A DNA stretch of 64,000 nt from Spirochaetia bacterium (GTDB lineage: Bacteria > Spirochaetota > Spirochaetia > Treponematales > Treponemataceae), in assembly GCA_900769975.1 (NCBI GenBank), contig CAAGIR010000142.1, forward strand, positions 3,869-67,868. The letters are read 5' to 3'. Positions 43,510-48,944 of this stretch are shown here, one piece after another. Numbering within the stretch: position 1 is the stretch's first letter; each line of letters opens with the position of its first letter. The notes beneath the pieces were generated by a model. The model saw only the letters and a list, made by a program, of their open reading frames with translations, searched no databases and was not told where the DNA came from. A program made the translations under genes and the position numbers.

Positions 43510-45486
43510 TTATTCTGCAATACTTGCATACAATATTTCAATCAGACTTTCCACTTCTGCTTTCCTGAATTGCGGGGCATTTTTCTGCACATGCAAAAGC
43601 ATTTTTAATGATTTATCGAGTTCGCCTTTCTGCAGATAAATTTTTCCCAGATTAACAAAAGAATTCCAATCCGATTCATTTTGTTCTATCAGTTTTTCAT
43701 AAATATTCATAGCGTCATCTAAATCACCATTTTCAAGATAAGCATTTCCCAGATTACTTAAAATGCTTGAATCTGCAGTTTTTTGTGCCGCTTTTTCATA
43801 ATGAAAAATTGCCTGACTGTAATTTTTCTTGATAACGTAAGCGGTGCCGAGATTATTGTTTACTTCAAAACCATCTTTATCATTATCATAAACAGAATTC
43901 AAAAGATCAAGAACGTAATCAACATCACAATCATCTTCTTCCATAAGAATTGCACTTAAATTAATTTTTGCTTTCTCATGATTTTGATTAATTTCCATAA
44001 CTTCTCTGTATCTTTTTTTTGCTTCGGTCAGTTTGCCATTTTTTTCCAGAATTAAAGCATAATTATAAATAATATTTGATTTGTTTTTATCATCTTTTAC
44101 AAATCCTTTTTCGTCATAAGCCTGCCATGCATATTGCAAAGCGTCACCTAATTTTCCTTCTTCAAGCAACACAATAGAATAATTATATTTTGCTATTGCT
44201 GATTCTGCACTTTTTGGCCGCATTTCTATTGCTTTGTTGTAACATTCTTCTGATTTTTTATTCTGATTTGTCTGAAAGTAAAGATTTCCAAGTTCTTCAT
44301 AAATTACAGGATTGTCAGATGTTAATTCAAGCAATTGTTTATAATAATTTTCTGCTTCATCATAATTTTTTTGGCGCATATTCAGTCTGGCCATTTCCAG
44401 AATTGCCTTTTCATAATCTGGTTTTATTGTAATTGCCTCTGTATATGCTTTTTCGGCATTTTCAGTTTGATTCAATTTTAAATACGTTAGTCCCAGATTA
44501 TATTTACTCTGATAAAACTTATTGTCCAGCTGACATGCTTTTTCGAAATTAATTTTTGCTTCATTATAATTGCGTTTTAAATAATAAATTTTTCCCATAT
44601 CATAATAATACAAAGGATTCTCTTTATTTTTTTCCAACGCTTTTTTTAGTTCTTCAAGTGCGTCATCATATTTTTTGTTTAAACTTGCCTGTTTTGACAA
44701 AGCATAATGTGCAGTGTCGTTATTTTCATCAGTTTCAAGAATTTTTCTAGCTATTTCGGCCGCCTTGTTGATTTTTTCTGCTTTGTTTTGAGAATTTTCT
44801 GTCTCTTCTGCTTCATTCAAAAGTTTTTCTATTTCTTCTTTTTCTTTTTTCTGATTTTCCTGCTCTTCCAGTTCTGCCTTCTTTTTCAGTTCAGCTTGTC
44901 TCTTCTGCTCCGCTTCCCTTGCTTTCTGCTCTTCCAGTTCTGCCTTCTTTTTCAGTTCGGCTTGTCTCTTCTGCTCCGCTTCACTTGCTTTCTGCTCTTC
45001 CAGTTCAGCCTTCTTTTTCAGTTCGGCTTGTCTCTTCTGCTCCGCCTCCCTAGCCTTCTGCTCTTCCAGTTCAGCCTTCTTTTTCAGTTCAGCCTGTCTC
45101 TTCTGTTCCGCCTCCCTTGCTTTCTGCTCTTCCAGTTCTGCCTTCTTTTTCAGTTCGGCCTGCCTCTTATCTTCCGCCTCCTCCGCACGCAGTTCCGCAT
45201 CCCTTACCTTTTGCTCTTCCAGTTCAGCCTGCAATTTTTTTTCTTCTATATCATTTTGCGACAGAGATGACACTTCTTCATCATTTTTTGCCCGTTTTGA
45301 ATTGTTTGAGATGTTTTTTTCAACATAATATTTATGTCCGTTTTCGAAATTTCCGCTTTTTTGATTATTAACATTTTCACACTGCCGAAACATCATCATT
45401 AAAATCAAAAAAATTATAAAAGCGACAATCACCAGAATGAATAATTTCTTTTTTTTATTTTTGTCTGTGCCTTCCTTTTTATCCAT
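43510..45486 (-). CDS. TPR-repeat membrane-anchored protein with an internal coiled-coil tandem-repeat array
   Basis: N-terminal transmembrane segment, about six copies of a 22-aa unit (AELKKKAELEEQKAREAEQKRQ), then multiple TPR units (A-x3-Y/W-x-A pattern). Confidence 0.7.
   Translation of the reverse strand: MDKKEGTDKNKKKKLFILVIVAFIIFLILMMMFRQCENVNNQKSGNFENGHKYYVEKNISNNSKRAKNDEEVSSLSQNDIEEKKLQAELEEQKVRDAELRAEEAEDKRQAELKKKAELEEQKAREAEQKRQAELKKKAELEEQKAREAEQKRQAELKKKAELEEQKASEAEQKRQAELKKKAELEEQKAREAEQKRQAELKKKAELEEQENQKKEKEEIEKLLNEAEETENSQNKAEKINKAAEIARKILETDENNDTAHYALSKQASLNKKYDDALEELKKALEKNKENPLYYYDMGKIYYLKRNYNEAKINFEKACQLDNKFYQSKYNLGLTYLKLNQTENAEKAYTEAITIKPDYEKAILEMARLNMRQKNYDEAENYYKQLLELTSDNPVIYEELGNLYFQTNQNKKSEECYNKAIEMRPKSAESAIAKYNYSIVLLEEGKLGDALQYAWQAYDEKGFVKDDKNKSNIIYNYALILEKNGKLTEAKKRYREVMEINQNHEKAKINLSAILMEEDDCDVDYVLDLLNSVYDNDKDGFEVNNNLGTAYVIKKNYSQAIFHYEKAAQKTADSSILSNLGNAYLENGDLDDAMNIYEKLIEQNESDWNSFVNLGKIYLQKGELDKSLKMLLHVQKNAPQFRKAEVESLIEILYASIAE
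44840..45210. repeat. In-frame 66-bp tandem repeat array (about 6 units) within the TPR gene
   Basis: Near-identical 66-bp units (ctgctcttccagttc[a/t]gccttctttttcagttc[a/g]gcttgtctcttctgctccgc...). Each encodes one 22-aa coiled-coil unit. Confidence 0.85.
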
Positions 45487-46832
45487 TAATCAAGCTCTCC
45501 TTCCTGTTCATATTCAAAAATTTCTTCAGCGCCCGAACTAATATTGGTAGAATCATTTTTTTGCAGCGAATTCTGTACATCTTCCAGTAATTTTTGTCTT
45601 TTTTCGTTTTCTGCTTTCATTAATTCTTCAAATATTTCCAGGCGTTTTTGTTTTTCTTCATCTTCCTTTGCTTTTTTACGCAAATATTCTTCCTGTTCCT
45701 GACGTTTTTTCAAAAGTTTCTGTTGTTTTTCCCATTCTTCCAGTTCTTTTTGAGTCTGGATATTCAGTTTCTGCAATTCCTTTGCTTCTTCATCAGAAAG
45801 GTTTTCCCACAATCCGTCTGTTTTTTCATACAGTTCCTTATCTTTTGCAGACAAAATGTCATCTTCAATATCCTTGTTTATGTCCTGCCAGTTATTTGAA
45901 TTTTCTTTTTCATTATCATCCTCTTCTTTTACTTCCTGCTGATTATCATAATTTTCTTTATCCAGTTCTTTTTCTGCAATTTCCTGCCATGAACTGTTTT
46001 TCTTTTCACTTTCCGTTTCCTGTGACGAAGTTTTTTCCACTAATATTTCTTCCCAAGGTCTTTTAGGTTTGTCAGACTGAATTCCATCCAGATTTTTTTC
46101 CGTCACTTTCTGCCAGTTATCCGCATTTTTTTCTTCAATATCCACATCATCCAGTTCATCATCAATAATTTCCCAAACAACATCAACATTATTTTCATTT
46201 TCATCGATTGAAGGATCAATCACTTCCCACCTGGCTTTGTTTTGTTCATCTAAAAGTCTCTGTTCCTCTTTTCTGCGTTCAATTTCATTTGTAATTGCAT
46301 CAATAAGCCTTTCGATTTTTTCTTTTTGCAAAGATTCAGGATTTTTTTCCAGATATTCCAGATAATCATTTTTTGCCAGAACAAGTTTATCATTCATCAA
46401 AAGAGAATTTGCTTTATTCAATAATGCATCATAAAAATCCTTGTCATTTTTGTATGCTATGCCAAAACATTCTGCTGCTTTTTCGTATTGTTTCAACGCA
46501 AAATAAGAATTTCCTTGATTAAACGAAAGAATTTTTATATTCGTAGGTTGAGCGTTAATTCCTCTTTCAAAAGCCTCCACCGATTTTTCATATTCACCCA
46601 GTTGATAATATCCCAAACCCAGGAAATTATACGTATTTGCAAAAACCTGATTATTAAGGATTTCATTTTCCAAAACCTGGACAGCTTCTTTTGGCTTGTT
46701 TTCCTGAAAAAGTTTTTCTCCCTGCGATTGACTGAAACAATATTCACCTATAAAAACAAAAAAAATCAATAAAACGGCAATTTTATTCTTCATTGTGTAA
46801 AACCTCAAAAAAATTAAAAAAAGTATTCCCAT
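45486..46832 (-). CDS. Secreted TPR-like protein with an acidic C-terminal region carrying periodic W-[QE]-[ED]-I motifs
   Basis: Signal peptide, N-terminal TPR-like helices, then a D/E/K-rich region with recurring motifs such as WEIIDDELDD, NWQKVTEKNLD, PWEEILVEK, SWQEIAEKELD, NWQDINKDIED and LWENLSDEE. Confidence 0.6.
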   Translation of the reverse strand: MGILFLIFLRFYTMKNKIAVLLIFFVFIGEYCFSQSQGEKLFQENKPKEAVQVLENEILNNQVFANTYNFLGLGYYQLGEYEKSVEAFERGINAQPTNIKILSFNQGNSYFALKQYEKAAECFGIAYKNDKDFYDALLNKANSLLMNDKLVLAKNDYLEYLEKNPESLQKEKIERLIDAITNEIERRKEEQRLLDEQNKARWEVIDPSIDENENNVDVVWEIIDDELDDVDIEEKNADNWQKVTEKNLDGIQSDKPKRPWEEILVEKTSSQETESEKKNSSWQEIAEKELDKENYDNQQEVKEEDDNEKENSNNWQDINKDIEDDILSAKDKELYEKTDGLWENLSDEEAKELQKLNIQTQKELEEWEKQQKLLKKRQEQEEYLRKKAKEDEEKQKRLEIFEELMKAENEKRQKLLEDVQNSLQKNDSTNISSGAEEIFEYEQEGELD

Positions 46833-46950
46833 TCAAAAAAAATTCATTTAAACATTTTTATACTTTTCTTTATTATCGAAGAAAAACATCTGTTTGTTAA
46901 ACATAAAAAGTTATGTTGAATTTTACAAGATTTTGATATATCATAATAAT

Positions 46951-48012
46951 ATGAAAACTGCTAAAACTATTCGAATTTTTATTCTGATTACCATATTTTT
47001 TACTATTTTATACCTTTTTTTTGCATCAAAACCATTATCAAAAGAATATCAGTTTACCCCTGTATGGAACATAAATACTTCGTACCCTGTAGTTAAACCT
47101 TCTCAATTAAAAGAAAATCCCGTTCATTTTCATCTTGGTCAGACTATCGGTTATTTTGATTCAGAAGGAACTATTACACATTACAAATCATTTCCTTCAA
47201 AAGTTTCCATTTCAGACTATTATTATGCTGTTTACGATTCAAATGCGAACAATACTCCGTTTTATTTTCCCGACGGTAAGCAGGCTGGTACAATTAAAGC
47301 AAGCGGATATCCTTATTTTGTTGATGATATTATCTATGTAATGCTGCCAGGCGGTGCCTCTTTTGCAAAATGTGATGATGAAGGCAATGTTATCTGGCAA
47401 TATGAAGGCGTTATCCCCATTACTGCTTTTTCTGCAAAAAAAGATTTTACTGCCATAGGACTTTCTGACGGCACAATTAAAGTTTTTGAAAATAATTCAG
47501 GAACAAATATAATTAATTTTGCACCTGGTGGCAGTGATTATCCAGTTATTTTGGGATTAGACATTTCTGAAAACGGAGAATACATTGCTTCCATATCGGG
47601 TCATAATCAGCAGCGTTTTGTTTTGTCACATAAAGAAGGTTCTCAGCAGAAAATTATTTACCACACTTTTTTGCCAGTAGATTCTCCTTATCGTACTTTA
47701 ATCCATTTTTGCGATTCAAAAAAACGTGTTTATTATAATTATGATGATAAACTTGGCATTTACGATTTAAAATCAAATACAAATTCTGTTGTTCAACTCA
47801 AAAATAAAGTTATTTCTATAGAAGAAAGTAATGATTTTATTTTCCTTTTATCAAAAAAACAGAAAGAATACACTGTTTCACTTATCGAAAATACAAATAC
47901 TCTGGGTGGCAGTTTTTCTTTTGAAGCAGATACAGCATTTATTCATTCTGTTAATAATGATTTATACATTGGAAAAGATAATACCATTTCACGATTGTCA
48001 ATTACAAAATGA
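46951..48012 (+). CDS. Hypothetical membrane-anchored protein, beta-rich (possible beta-propeller)
   Basis: The start is taken at MKTAKTIRIFILITIFFTILYLFF (transmembrane segment). The remainder is beta-rich with short repeated blocks. No catalytic motif. Confidence 0.4.
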   Translation: MKTAKTIRIFILITIFFTILYLFFASKPLSKEYQFTPVWNINTSYPVVKPSQLKENPVHFHLGQTIGYFDSEGTITHYKSFPSKVSISDYYYAVYDSNANNTPFYFPDGKQAGTIKASGYPYFVDDIIYVMLPGGASFAKCDDEGNVIWQYEGVIPITAFSAKKDFTAIGLSDGTIKVFENNSGTNIINFAPGGSDYPVILGLDISENGEYIASISGHNQQRFVLSHKEGSQQKIIYHTFLPVDSPYRTLIHFCDSKKRVYYNYDDKLGIYDLKSNTNSVVQLKNKVISIEESNDFIFLLSKKQKEYTVSLIENTNTLGGSFSFEADTAFIHSVNNDLYIGKDNTISRLSITK

Positions 48013-48071
48013 TTTTCAAACTATAAAATGTAAATCAAAAAAGATACTTTTACGACTTTAGTTAAAAAAGG

Positions 48072-48944
48072 ATGTCAAATATGAAAAAAATTATCAGCAC
48101 TGTTATATCTGTTTTTTTTATGACTTTTCTATTCTGTTTTGAATGGCCTCAAGATAATATTTCGCCTGAATCGTATTCCACTTATTTTGGACAGGAACGT
48201 GGTGGTTTAATTAATAATTCTCTTGTATTTTCCGAACCATCTCAGATAAAAGCGGCAGAAAAAGGTACAATTCTTGCCATTATTCTGGAAAATTACGACG
48301 ATTCAGATTTTTTTCCATCTACTTTGGGTACAAGCGTTATTCTTTCTCACGAAGATAACCTTCAGTCTGTTTATGCAAATTTTGAAATATCATCGCTTAC
48401 ATTAAATGATCAGAATGAAACTGCTGTAGATGCAGGGACAATTTTAGGGGAAAGCGGATCATCTTCCTGGCAGGAAAACAAAGGTCACCTTGAATTCCAG
48501 ATTATCGATACAAAAAACAAATCTGCAATTAATCCAAAAGTTTTAATGCCTAGATCAGAAAAAGAAATTCCGCTTGTTTTGATGGGTATTTGTTTGGAAA
48601 ATAAAAATCACACTTTTTACGATTTAAATGTCTACAAAACTTTCCAGTCAGGGCTTTACAGAGTATATCAGAAAAAAAATGACATTGCTTCGCCTTATAA
48701 AACGACGGTAAGTATTAACGGTGTAATCGTAGATCAGATTCATTATGATACGATAATTCAAGAAAATGAAAAAATCTGTGTTTCTGGTAAAAAGAAATAT
48801 ACAAGCAAAGATATATATCCGAACGAAGATTTGCATTTGCTTGGAGAAGCAATGTTTACGCCTGGAAAAATTACATTAACGCTTGCCGAAGAAGATATTT
48901 TGGGAAATTCCAGACAATTAGTGTATAATATTACTGTAAAATAA
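48072..48944 (+). CDS. Secreted protein with a degenerate M23/LytM-like domain
   Basis: Signal peptide. GTILAII...SVILSHEDNLQSVYANF...VDAGTILGESG...HLEFQI echoes the M23 layout, but the catalytic HxxxD and HxH residues are substituted. Confidence 0.4.
   Translation: MSNMKKIISTVISVFFMTFLFCFEWPQDNISPESYSTYFGQERGGLINNSLVFSEPSQIKAAEKGTILAIILENYDDSDFFPSTLGTSVILSHEDNLQSVYANFEISSLTLNDQNETAVDAGTILGESGSSSWQENKGHLEFQIIDTKNKSAINPKVLMPRSEKEIPLVLMGICLENKNHTFYDLNVYKTFQSGLYRVYQKKNDIASPYKTTVSINGVIVDQIHYDTIIQENEKICVSGKKKYTSKDIYPNEDLHLLGEAMFTPGKITLTLAEEDILGNSRQLVYNITVK

Follow-up and report, generated by a model that had tools for sequence, protein, structure and literature searches.

The 64,000-nucleotide stretch analysed here (the window; contig CAAGIR010000142.1, positions 3,869 to 67,868, of the Spirochaetia bacterium assembly GCA_900769975.1) carries on its minus strand a gene for a 658 amino acid (aa) tetratricopeptide repeat (TPR) protein with a predicted membrane anchor, and within this gene lies a tandem array of 66-bp units. 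The array is probably a coding minisatellite within a charged helical tether, and in effect a slow variable-number tandem repeat (VNTR) that is fixed in the lineage sampled here while tether length evolves in the wider family. The tether of the family changes length by gain and loss of repeats on the time scale of strain divergence, and the window array appears to participate in this process. The features referred to below are collected in Table 1.

Tandem Repeats Finder (TRF) delimits the array at 44860–45181 with a period of 66, 4.9 copies, 93% matches, 0% indels and a score of 532. The period is a multiple of three and the units lie head-to-tail inside the open reading frame (ORF), as in a coding minisatellite. 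Read in the minus-strand codon register, four full units (45159–45094, 45093–45028, 45027–44962 and 44961–44896) each encode the 22-residue peptide AELKKKAELEEQKA[R/S]EAEQKRQ. They are preceded by a degenerate leading unit, designated unit 0, which differs from the full units at 32–37 of 66 nucleotides, and are followed by a partial fifth unit. An earlier reading of this DNA from its letters alone (hereafter, the sequence-only reading) had reported an in-frame 66-bp array of about six units at 44840–45210; the array is confirmed inside that interval, and the count comes down to approximately 4.5 near-identical units. Its description of these units as near-identical and perfectly phased holds, although they are not identical, with pairwise differences among the full units at 2–6 of 66 nucleotides (91–97% identity, no indels). 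The mean unit-to-unit divergence in the array is 6.6%. Exact repeats of 31–47 bp, the longest being 47 bp, are available for recombination. The plus-strand ORF at 44707–45270 that had been ascribed to the repetitiveness also exists, but it extends past the limits of the array and is most readily put down to the lack of stops in the antisense frame of E/K/Q/A codons.

Eight nucleotide columns vary among the full units and all of them fall at codon position 3; seven of the changes are synonymous and one replaces R with S. As only 19% of the possible single-base changes in the unit would be synonymous, seven out of eight corresponds to P = 6e-5 under neutrality; the amino acid sequence of the unit is under purifying selection.

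The domain arrangement of the protein was delineated from Pfam matches and an AlphaFold2 (AF2) model, for which the input alignment comprised 12 sequences and the mean predicted local distance difference test score (pLDDT) was 83. Pfam TPR families (TPR_1, TPR_2, TPR_8 and others) cover residues ~240–645 with E-values down to 5e-44. A Foldseek search against the PDB returned only generic TPR superhelices (among them OGT, SPY and Ctr9), the best hit being the TPR domain of OGT with an E-value of 3e-17, and a PDB sequence search with the tether as query gave no match. The K-rich N-terminus and the 19-residue hydrophobic helix LFILVIVAFIIFLILMMMF predict export; because this N-terminus follows the positive-inside pattern, we infer that the anchor is oriented N-in and that the tether and the TPR array are periplasmic. 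The array lies between an N-terminal anchor (residues 15–33) and the Pfam-defined TPR array, as the sequence-only reading had proposed.

The tether has a strongly biased composition. Residues 80–217 comprise 29% E, 22% K, 16% A, 12% Q, 9% L and 7% R with neither Pro nor Gly, and E, K, R and D together make up 59% of the tether. Favourable opposite-charge pairs at i+3/i+4 number 71, versus 47.8 ± 5.3 in shuffled sequences, and only two like-charge pairs occur at i+4. Periodicity analysis revealed no heptad or hendecad hydrophobic seam. The a/d core of the best heptad register contains 14% large hydrophobics and 64% charged residues or Gln; the hendecad register, which the 22-residue period allows, is 50% apolar only if Ala is counted, and in the best heptad or hendecad register 50–64% of the core is charged or Gln. 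The Fourier power of hydrophobicity is 2.5 at a period of 3.5 and 20 at 3.67, versus 79–153 at unrelated periods. The charge content, the i+3/i+4 pairs, the lack of helix breakers and the lack of a seam are those typical of ER/K single alpha-helices, which include a segment of INCENP and are often mis-called coiled coil (PMC4571873). These patterns make an ER/K-type single alpha-helix the most likely form of the tether, in preference to a canonical coiled coil, so that the helical spacer of the sequence-only reading stands while its label of coiled-coil is probably wrong. An alpha-helix rises by 0.15 nm per residue, and each 22-residue unit would therefore add approximately 3.3 nm if helical, with residues 77–228 spanning approximately 20 nm.

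We regard it as unlikely that the protein is instead oligomerised, in the manner of CpoB/YbgF, through a canonical coiled coil of two or three strands in the repeat region, with no monomeric spacer. Such a structure would accord with the long uninterrupted helix predicted by AF2, with the equivalence of the 22-residue period to two hendecads and a weak Ala/Leu stripe (L3, A7, A14 and A17, period 3.67), and with the known periplasmic architecture of a coiled coil plus TPRs in CpoB (PMC12204202). It is, however, at odds with a core that holds so few large hydrophobics in its best register and with the low Fourier power at both coiled-coil periods, and the tol_pal_ybgF model of NCBIfam, which has its cut-off at 90.1 bits, reaches 40.9 and matches the TPR part only.

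Evidence that tethers of this family change in length comes from the orthologs. A genus-wide scan of GTDB species yielded 61 Treponema loci with orthologs of 31–41% identity. A charged tether is present in 58 of 58 complete orthologs, with a length of 222–375 aa and a median of 266, the window's (222 aa) being the shortest. Linker sequence is not conserved between species, and many orthologs have short degenerate linker repeats with periods of 18, 21, 42, 45 or 54 nt, among which the window array is the strongest. In a sister species from pig gut (62–64% aa identity), full orthologs came in three lengths, 675 aa on four contigs, 694 aa on two and 703 aa on one; these alleles share 94–96% DNA identity, and their differences in length consist entirely of EEKRLA-type blocks inserted or deleted in the E/K linker. 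Within another clade, two loci (L071 and L072) are 91% identical in DNA over most of the gene with almost identical TPR regions, and differ by indels of 30 aa (two 15-aa units), 23, 11 and 5 aa, every one of them in the linker. The length variation predicted by the sequence-only reading is supported for linkers of the family. An N-terminal helical hairpin (LAKTYADRGEYDRALNKLD...) and a DVDTS... segment, which in most orthologs lie between the anchor and the charged helix (columns ~125–290 of alignment A1), are missing from the window protein and the sister species (window 45259–45372), and repeat amplification may partly offset the loss of these tether modules.

Neutral low-complexity expansion in a floppy linker, in which length and sequence are irrelevant and variation is drift, would explain why linker sequence is not conserved between species, why periods vary by species (18, 21, 42, 45, 54 and 66 nt) and why AF2 confidence is low. 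This explanation does not seem likely in view of the synonymous excess among the units (7/8, P = 6e-5), the presence of a bounded charged tether in every complete ortholog and a charge pattern that departs from randomness when set against shuffled sequences.

A second strain of the window species was found via the protein encoded upstream of the repeat gene (P0023 and P0024). Its two contigs, L077 and L078, are 98.5% identical to the window over 7.6 kb and 96.3% identical (pig gut), respectively. The readable start of the second-strain array encodes AELEEQRAREAEQKRQ, AELKKKAELEEQRARESEQKRQ and AELKKKAELEEQ in succession, and its first unit, at the position of unit 0, is 7 aa shorter than window unit 0 and more regular. 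Second-strain units differ from every window unit at 8–10 of 66 nucleotides, whereas units of one array differ from each other at 2–6 of 66 (window) or 3 of 48 (L078); the flanking DNA of the two strains is 1.5–3.7% different. As a unit is more similar to the other units of its own array than to the unit at the same position in the other strain, the units have evolved in concert, with turnover since the split of the window strain and the second strain.

Copy number in the window lineage was assessed from public assemblies. The exact 658-aa protein was found on 15 contigs. The exact product of the upstream gene was found on 22, comprising these 15 with the full identical gene, one (L007) that stops downstream of the array and has an array identical to the window's, and six that stop at the array edge. 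Look-ups via mutL and xseB returned contigs of the same clone or contigs broken at the array. A full-protein homolog search found no relative above 64% identity and no full-length second-strain allele, an exact-sequence cluster look-up with the 658-aa protein returned no entry, and a scan of Joint Genome Institute (JGI) metagenomes gave only three loci at 41% identity. Among GTDB species representatives no ortholog exceeded 41% identity, with one of the two search patterns matching the window protein, and the window species is apparently missing from the representatives returned. Several runs of project PRJNA217052, on human gut metagenomes from Fiji, are the source of the 100%-identical contigs (L001, L003–L009 and L091–L093); the 96–98.5%-identical contigs (L077 and L078) stem from SRR19716440 and from pig gut (metagenome PRJEB11755). 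Apparently these contigs represent a Treponema species not yet catalogued and common to humans and pigs, with one clone present across several samples.

Public short-read assemblies systematically lose or gap such tethers, and linker variation is under-recorded because assemblies break or gap at the linkers. Contigs of the Logan collection built at k=31 (L005, L008 and L009) stop at 44889 and 45130, and scaffolds from three related species (L002 and L074–L076) have runs of N, 73–100 long, in or next to their linkers. These breaks and gaps are also what might be expected if the repeat were itself a short-read assembly artefact with copies collapsed or inflated, but the probability of this is negligible. 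The Logan break points lie exactly k-2 into the zone of non-unique 31-mers (44860–45159), as expected from the k-mer length; the longest exact repeat of 47 bp is below both k=127 and the read length; and SPAdes-style (ERZ2661612 and ERZ2661415) and MEGAHIT k127 (ERZ963631) assemblies match the window at 100% identity across up to 10 kb. Since independent assemblers agree and the longest repeat is shorter than k=127, an artefactual copy number of the window array is excluded.

The pace at which the array changes is constrained by several of these observations. A fast contingency locus, with frequent expansion and contraction within populations and a length- or phase-variable protein serving as bet-hedging, is highly unlikely here. 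The high identity of the units and the exact 31–47-bp repeats would favour one, minority length alleles would be invisible in short-read consensus assemblies, and there is a same-genus precedent in tp0470 of T. pallidum, in which 4–51 copies are found, varying within clones (PMC9531955, PMC10013896). The window units, however, differ at eight sites, whereas no sequence differences occur among tp0470 units across 233 strains (PMC9531955). Phase variation, which the sequence-only reading had mentioned by way of analogy, is contradicted by the 3n period: whole-unit changes keep the frame, and expression cannot be turned off. The array is no fast switch, because the frame is kept, because the unit divergence of 6.6% exceeds the inter-strain flank divergence of 1.5–3.7%, which argues against rapid turnover, and because the array is invariant in the clone. 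The seven synonymous differences between units and the uniform copy number of the spanning assemblies are, narrowly taken, the two findings that the sequence-only reading had itself named as refuting the ready expansion and contraction it anticipated.

We therefore return to the slow coding VNTR, for which the following course of events can be proposed. Tandem amplification of a 22-codon segment within the charged tether would have given rise to the 66-bp array, and the resulting ER/K single-helix tether would hold the TPR superhelix away from the membrane anchor. Units would be gained, lost and homogenised via unequal recombination or template switching between them, and this turnover would lead to tethers that differ in length between strains and species. 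In the sampled lineage the window array is fixed at four full units and one partial unit. Of this account, the layout of the array, the signature of selection, the length polymorphism of the family, the concerted evolution and the constant copy number in the clone are observed, while the periplasmic location, the single-helix state, the role as spacer and the mutational mechanism are deduced.

A number of observations weigh against this interpretation. All 16 assemblies that span the array (the 15 contigs and L007) have the same copy number; as they represent one clone with 100% identical flanking DNA, they form a weak test of stability, and short-read consensus assemblies hide minority length alleles. 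The L077 and L078 contigs of the second strain both end inside the array, and its total copy number is accordingly not readable. In the array region the AF2 model has a pLDDT of only 44–66 and predicts a break at residues 150–163, and sequence does not by itself separate a monomeric helix from an oligomeric coil. Every NCBIfam match of the protein lies far under the curated cut-off. Lastly, the array coincides with an island of elevated GC at third codon positions (GC3), which simple in-place amplification does not predict.

The GC content of the array is 0.506 versus 0.338 for both the gene and the window, with the island extending over 44860–45230 and a peak of 0.535 in a 200-nt profile. GC3 is 0.56 in the array versus 0.23 over the remainder of the gene and 0.24 for eight neighbouring genes; matched E/K-rich controls have values of 0.22–0.28, sister-species linkers 0.21–0.23 and the second-strain array 0.60. 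Codon choice shifts in parallel. AAG accounts for 68% of Lys codons in the array versus 7–9% elsewhere, GAG for 37% versus 2–6%, CTG for 100% versus 13–24% and GCG for 32% versus 5–7%. Possible origins of the island are GC-biased gene conversion, import from a GC-richer relative or selection against slippage in A-runs. Import by recombination followed by amplification, such that the resident linker was not the source of the array segment, would account for the sharpness of the island, for its GC3 relative to controls and sister-species linkers, and for the AAG and CTG usage. We nevertheless find it distinctly unlikely. No GC-rich donor of the unit was found among the 61 Treponema loci, the three metagenome loci and viral contigs, and a BLAST search with the unit against all fetched loci matched only the same-species strain. 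Moreover, the edges of the array can be aligned with the linker resident in the sister species (AELEEQ|ENQK versus RLAE|ENQK), and the same signal would result from GC-biased gene conversion in a recombining array.

The 658-aa protein belongs to no named TPR family. PrsT, the best-scoring NCBIfam TPR family, reaches 121.7 bits against a cut-off of 312.2, the flagellar collar protein FlcA 36.3 bits against 300, and BatC of the Bat operon 39.4 bits against 175, with no vWA neighbours; PilW, LapB and MamA also score under their curated cut-offs. An assignment to the Bat operon, to Tol-Pal/CpoB or to FlcA was accordingly discarded. In most orthologs a Cys directly follows the hydrophobic segment in lipobox-like contexts (IRGC, VKGC, IHSC and VRSC; L010–L070), because of which members of the family may be lipoproteins instead of being anchored by a transmembrane (TM) helix. 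The residues at position -1 of this Cys are atypical in the window protein, FRQC (FRQCE, residues 33–37, 45375–45390), and in the sister species, IFKC.

The repeat gene is the second gene of a conserved Treponema two-gene TPR unit. The stop codon of the upstream gene overlaps the start codon of the repeat gene by 1 nt (TAATG; 45482–45490), and at 57 of 63 Treponema loci the ortholog has a homolog of the upstream gene before it on the same strand, with mutL adjoining at 53 of the 63 (L010–L073). The upstream protein consists of a signal peptide, approximately four TPRs, an acidic region and a conserved C-terminus. Its acidic region (residues ~190–335) contains five W-[EQ]-x-[IVL] motifs, approximately 20–30 aa apart, and eight Trp in total, and its orthologs have 0–7 such motifs, often as xWEKIDx. 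By their sequence, these motifs could be candidate short linear ligands for the adjoining TPR array. Tether length showed no correlation with upstream-protein length or W-motif count among only 10 usable pairs, a comparison that is underpowered. In two relatives of the upstream gene (P0148 and P0159) the C-terminal region carries charged tandem repeats, with a 27-aa unit LAEAEAEKQRLAEQAELERKLEEAEKK and an 11-aa unit KAEEERIAAEK. The neighbours of the repeat gene are mutL, xseAB, an ABC sugar system, the TPR partner, a beta-propeller-like protein, an M23 peptidase and PGM. Divergent from the TPR pair, at 46894–48944 on the plus strand, lie genes for a 372-aa protein with faint beta-propeller/WD40-like matches and for the M23 peptidase, whose product on public contigs is a match to Pfam family TP_0781; the sister species does not share this neighbourhood.

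Table 1. Features of the repeat gene and its surroundings (window positions).
Feature	Position	Strand	Basis
Gene for 658-aa membrane-tethered, predicted periplasmic TPR protein	43510..45486	-	ORF, Pfam, orthologs in 61 Treponema genomes, AF2
TPR superhelix, aa 232–657, ~12 repeats	43516..44793	-	Pfam; AF2 pLDDT >90; Foldseek
Charged, predicted alpha-helical tether, aa 77–228, ~150 aa	44803..45258	-	AF2 helices 77–149 and 164–228; composition, salt-bridge and periodicity analysis
Partial fifth unit, 12 codons, AELKKKAELEEQ, 3' array boundary	44860..44895	-	TRF and codon register
Four full 66-bp / 22-codon units, AELKKKAELEEQKA[R/S]EAEQKRQ	44896..45159	-	aa 110–197
Degenerate leading unit 0, ELEEQKVRDAELRAEEAEDKRQ, aa 88–109	45160..45225	-	Codon register
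Low-confidence, probably disordered segment, aa 39–76	45259..45372	-	AF2 pLDDT <50, without secondary structure
Hydrophobic anchor LFILVIVAFIIFLILMMMF, aa 15–33, preceded by K-rich N-terminus	45388..45444	-	Sequence, hydropathy 3.4, AF2 helix 9–38
Antisense ORF, 187 aa, F/L/C/S-rich, judged spurious	44707..45270	+	ORF list, frame relation
Upstream partner gene, 435 aa from ATG 46793 (448 aa from 46832)	45486..46793	-	ORF, Pfam, synteny
Promoter-like site upstream of gene pair	46872..46900	-	Consensus match only

To our knowledge, no role has been established for length variation in treponemal coding repeats. The coding repeats of arp and tp0470 serve in the strain typing of syphilis, and the same theme, a charged repeat helix on a TPR scaffold, recurs here in an uncultured Treponema of the human and pig gut. 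A genus-conserved family whose tether varies in length between strains offers a comparative handle on the question of length variation. What is new relative to tp0470 is a longer and slower repeat unit at a different position within a TPR protein. The analysis also serves as a warning that E/K-rich repeats called coiled-coil are likely to be single alpha-helices. The window array is real and selected at the protein level, yet stable in the sampled lineage, and the practical message is correspondingly modest.

It is conceivable, if improbable, that the observations on the gene pair belong together as a conserved treponemal periplasmic 'reach' system, which could in that case be the counterpart of TP0470–TP0471 of T. 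pallidum. An ER/K ruler would then set a tunable distance between the TPR superhelix and the membrane, its length being reset by gain and loss of repeats and matched to the geometry of the envelope or to the partner protein. The array of W-x-x-[IV] motifs in the adjoining partner would be the ligand of the TPR array, and continuing recombination within the array would have left the GC3 island as a footprint of GC-biased gene conversion. Were this the case, the clinically used tp0470 VNTR would gain a functional explanation as well as a tractable model in gut treponemes.

Several known systems resemble parts of the window protein. CpoB/YbgF similarly places a helical oligomerisation or spacer segment ahead of a TPR domain in the periplasm; its segment is a short trimeric coiled coil followed by three TPRs, and the window protein has no Tol-Pal context. 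The topology of the window protein, an N-terminal TM anchor followed by a long charged A/K/E-rich helix and a C-terminal periplasmic binding domain, is that of TolA, in which domain II forms an inner-membrane-anchored, largely alpha-helical linker that spans the periplasm (PMC12204202). The two are non-homologous, TolA ending in domain III and the window protein in a TPR superhelix. A TolA-type force transducer was considered and rejected, as the TM segment LFILVIVAFIIFLILMMMF is without His or Ser and no tolQR/exbBD-type motor genes lie nearby.

At the level of the tether itself, there is a likeness to the ER/K single alpha-helix domains of myosin VI/X and INCENP (PMC4571873) and of the KER region of CAF-1 (PMC10335832). 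These are likewise rich in E, K, R, Q and A, with dense opposite charges at i+4/i+3 and no hydrophobic seam, and act as a spacer or lever of defined length. They are mostly eukaryotic and cytoplasmic or nuclear, whereas the window tether is bacterial, predicted to be periplasmic and built from a recent DNA tandem repeat.

Two repeat genes of T. pallidum invite comparison at the level of DNA. Arp (tp0433) is also an envelope protein with an in-frame minisatellite, with a unit of 60 bp versus 66; its units are imperfect and of several types, and copy number varies between strains. It differs from the window protein in having acidic, Pro/Gly-containing units and a C-terminal SPOR domain, with no TPR array and no ER/K helix, and there is no evidence that the two are homologous. 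The gene tp0470 encodes a periplasmic TPR protein with a 24-bp / 8-aa EAEEARRK repeat in 4–51 copies, varying even within cultured clones (PMC9531955, PMC10013896, PMC2408589). Like the repeat gene of the window, it belongs to Treponema and encodes a secreted or periplasmic TPR protein with an in-frame charged repeat. The E/A/R/K segment is predicted to form one very long alpha-helix, and the window tether is likewise charged and predicted to be helical; the length of the TP0470 repeat varies between strains, and short reads fail to assemble it.

The differences between the two lie in the unit, its dynamics and its placement. The TP0470 unit of 24 bp / 8 aa compares with 66 bp / 22 aa in the window; tp0470 units are identical, whereas window units have diverged at synonymous sites, and 4–51 copies that vary within cultures contrast with 4.5 copies that are fixed in the clone. 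In TP0470 the repeat is C-terminal to a four-TPR domain and the protein has a cleaved signal peptide; in the window protein the repeat is N-terminal to a 12-TPR array and follows a membrane anchor. In this respect the architecture of TP0470 is closer to that of the window's upstream gene than to that of the repeat gene, and the C-terminal charged repeats of P0148 and P0159 echo it. A synthetic query of 15 EARRKEAE units gave no match at a cut-off of 1e-10, which is too strict for such biased composition, and for the upstream protein the best 150 representatives included no EARRKEAE-containing protein. TP0470 adjoins TP0471, a TPR-domain protein, just as the repeat gene of the window adjoins its TPR partner, and it is by this likeness of architecture that the TP0470/TP0471 pair may be linked to the gene pair described here. 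The coding repeats of tp0470 and arp are the closest precedents in kind for the window array.

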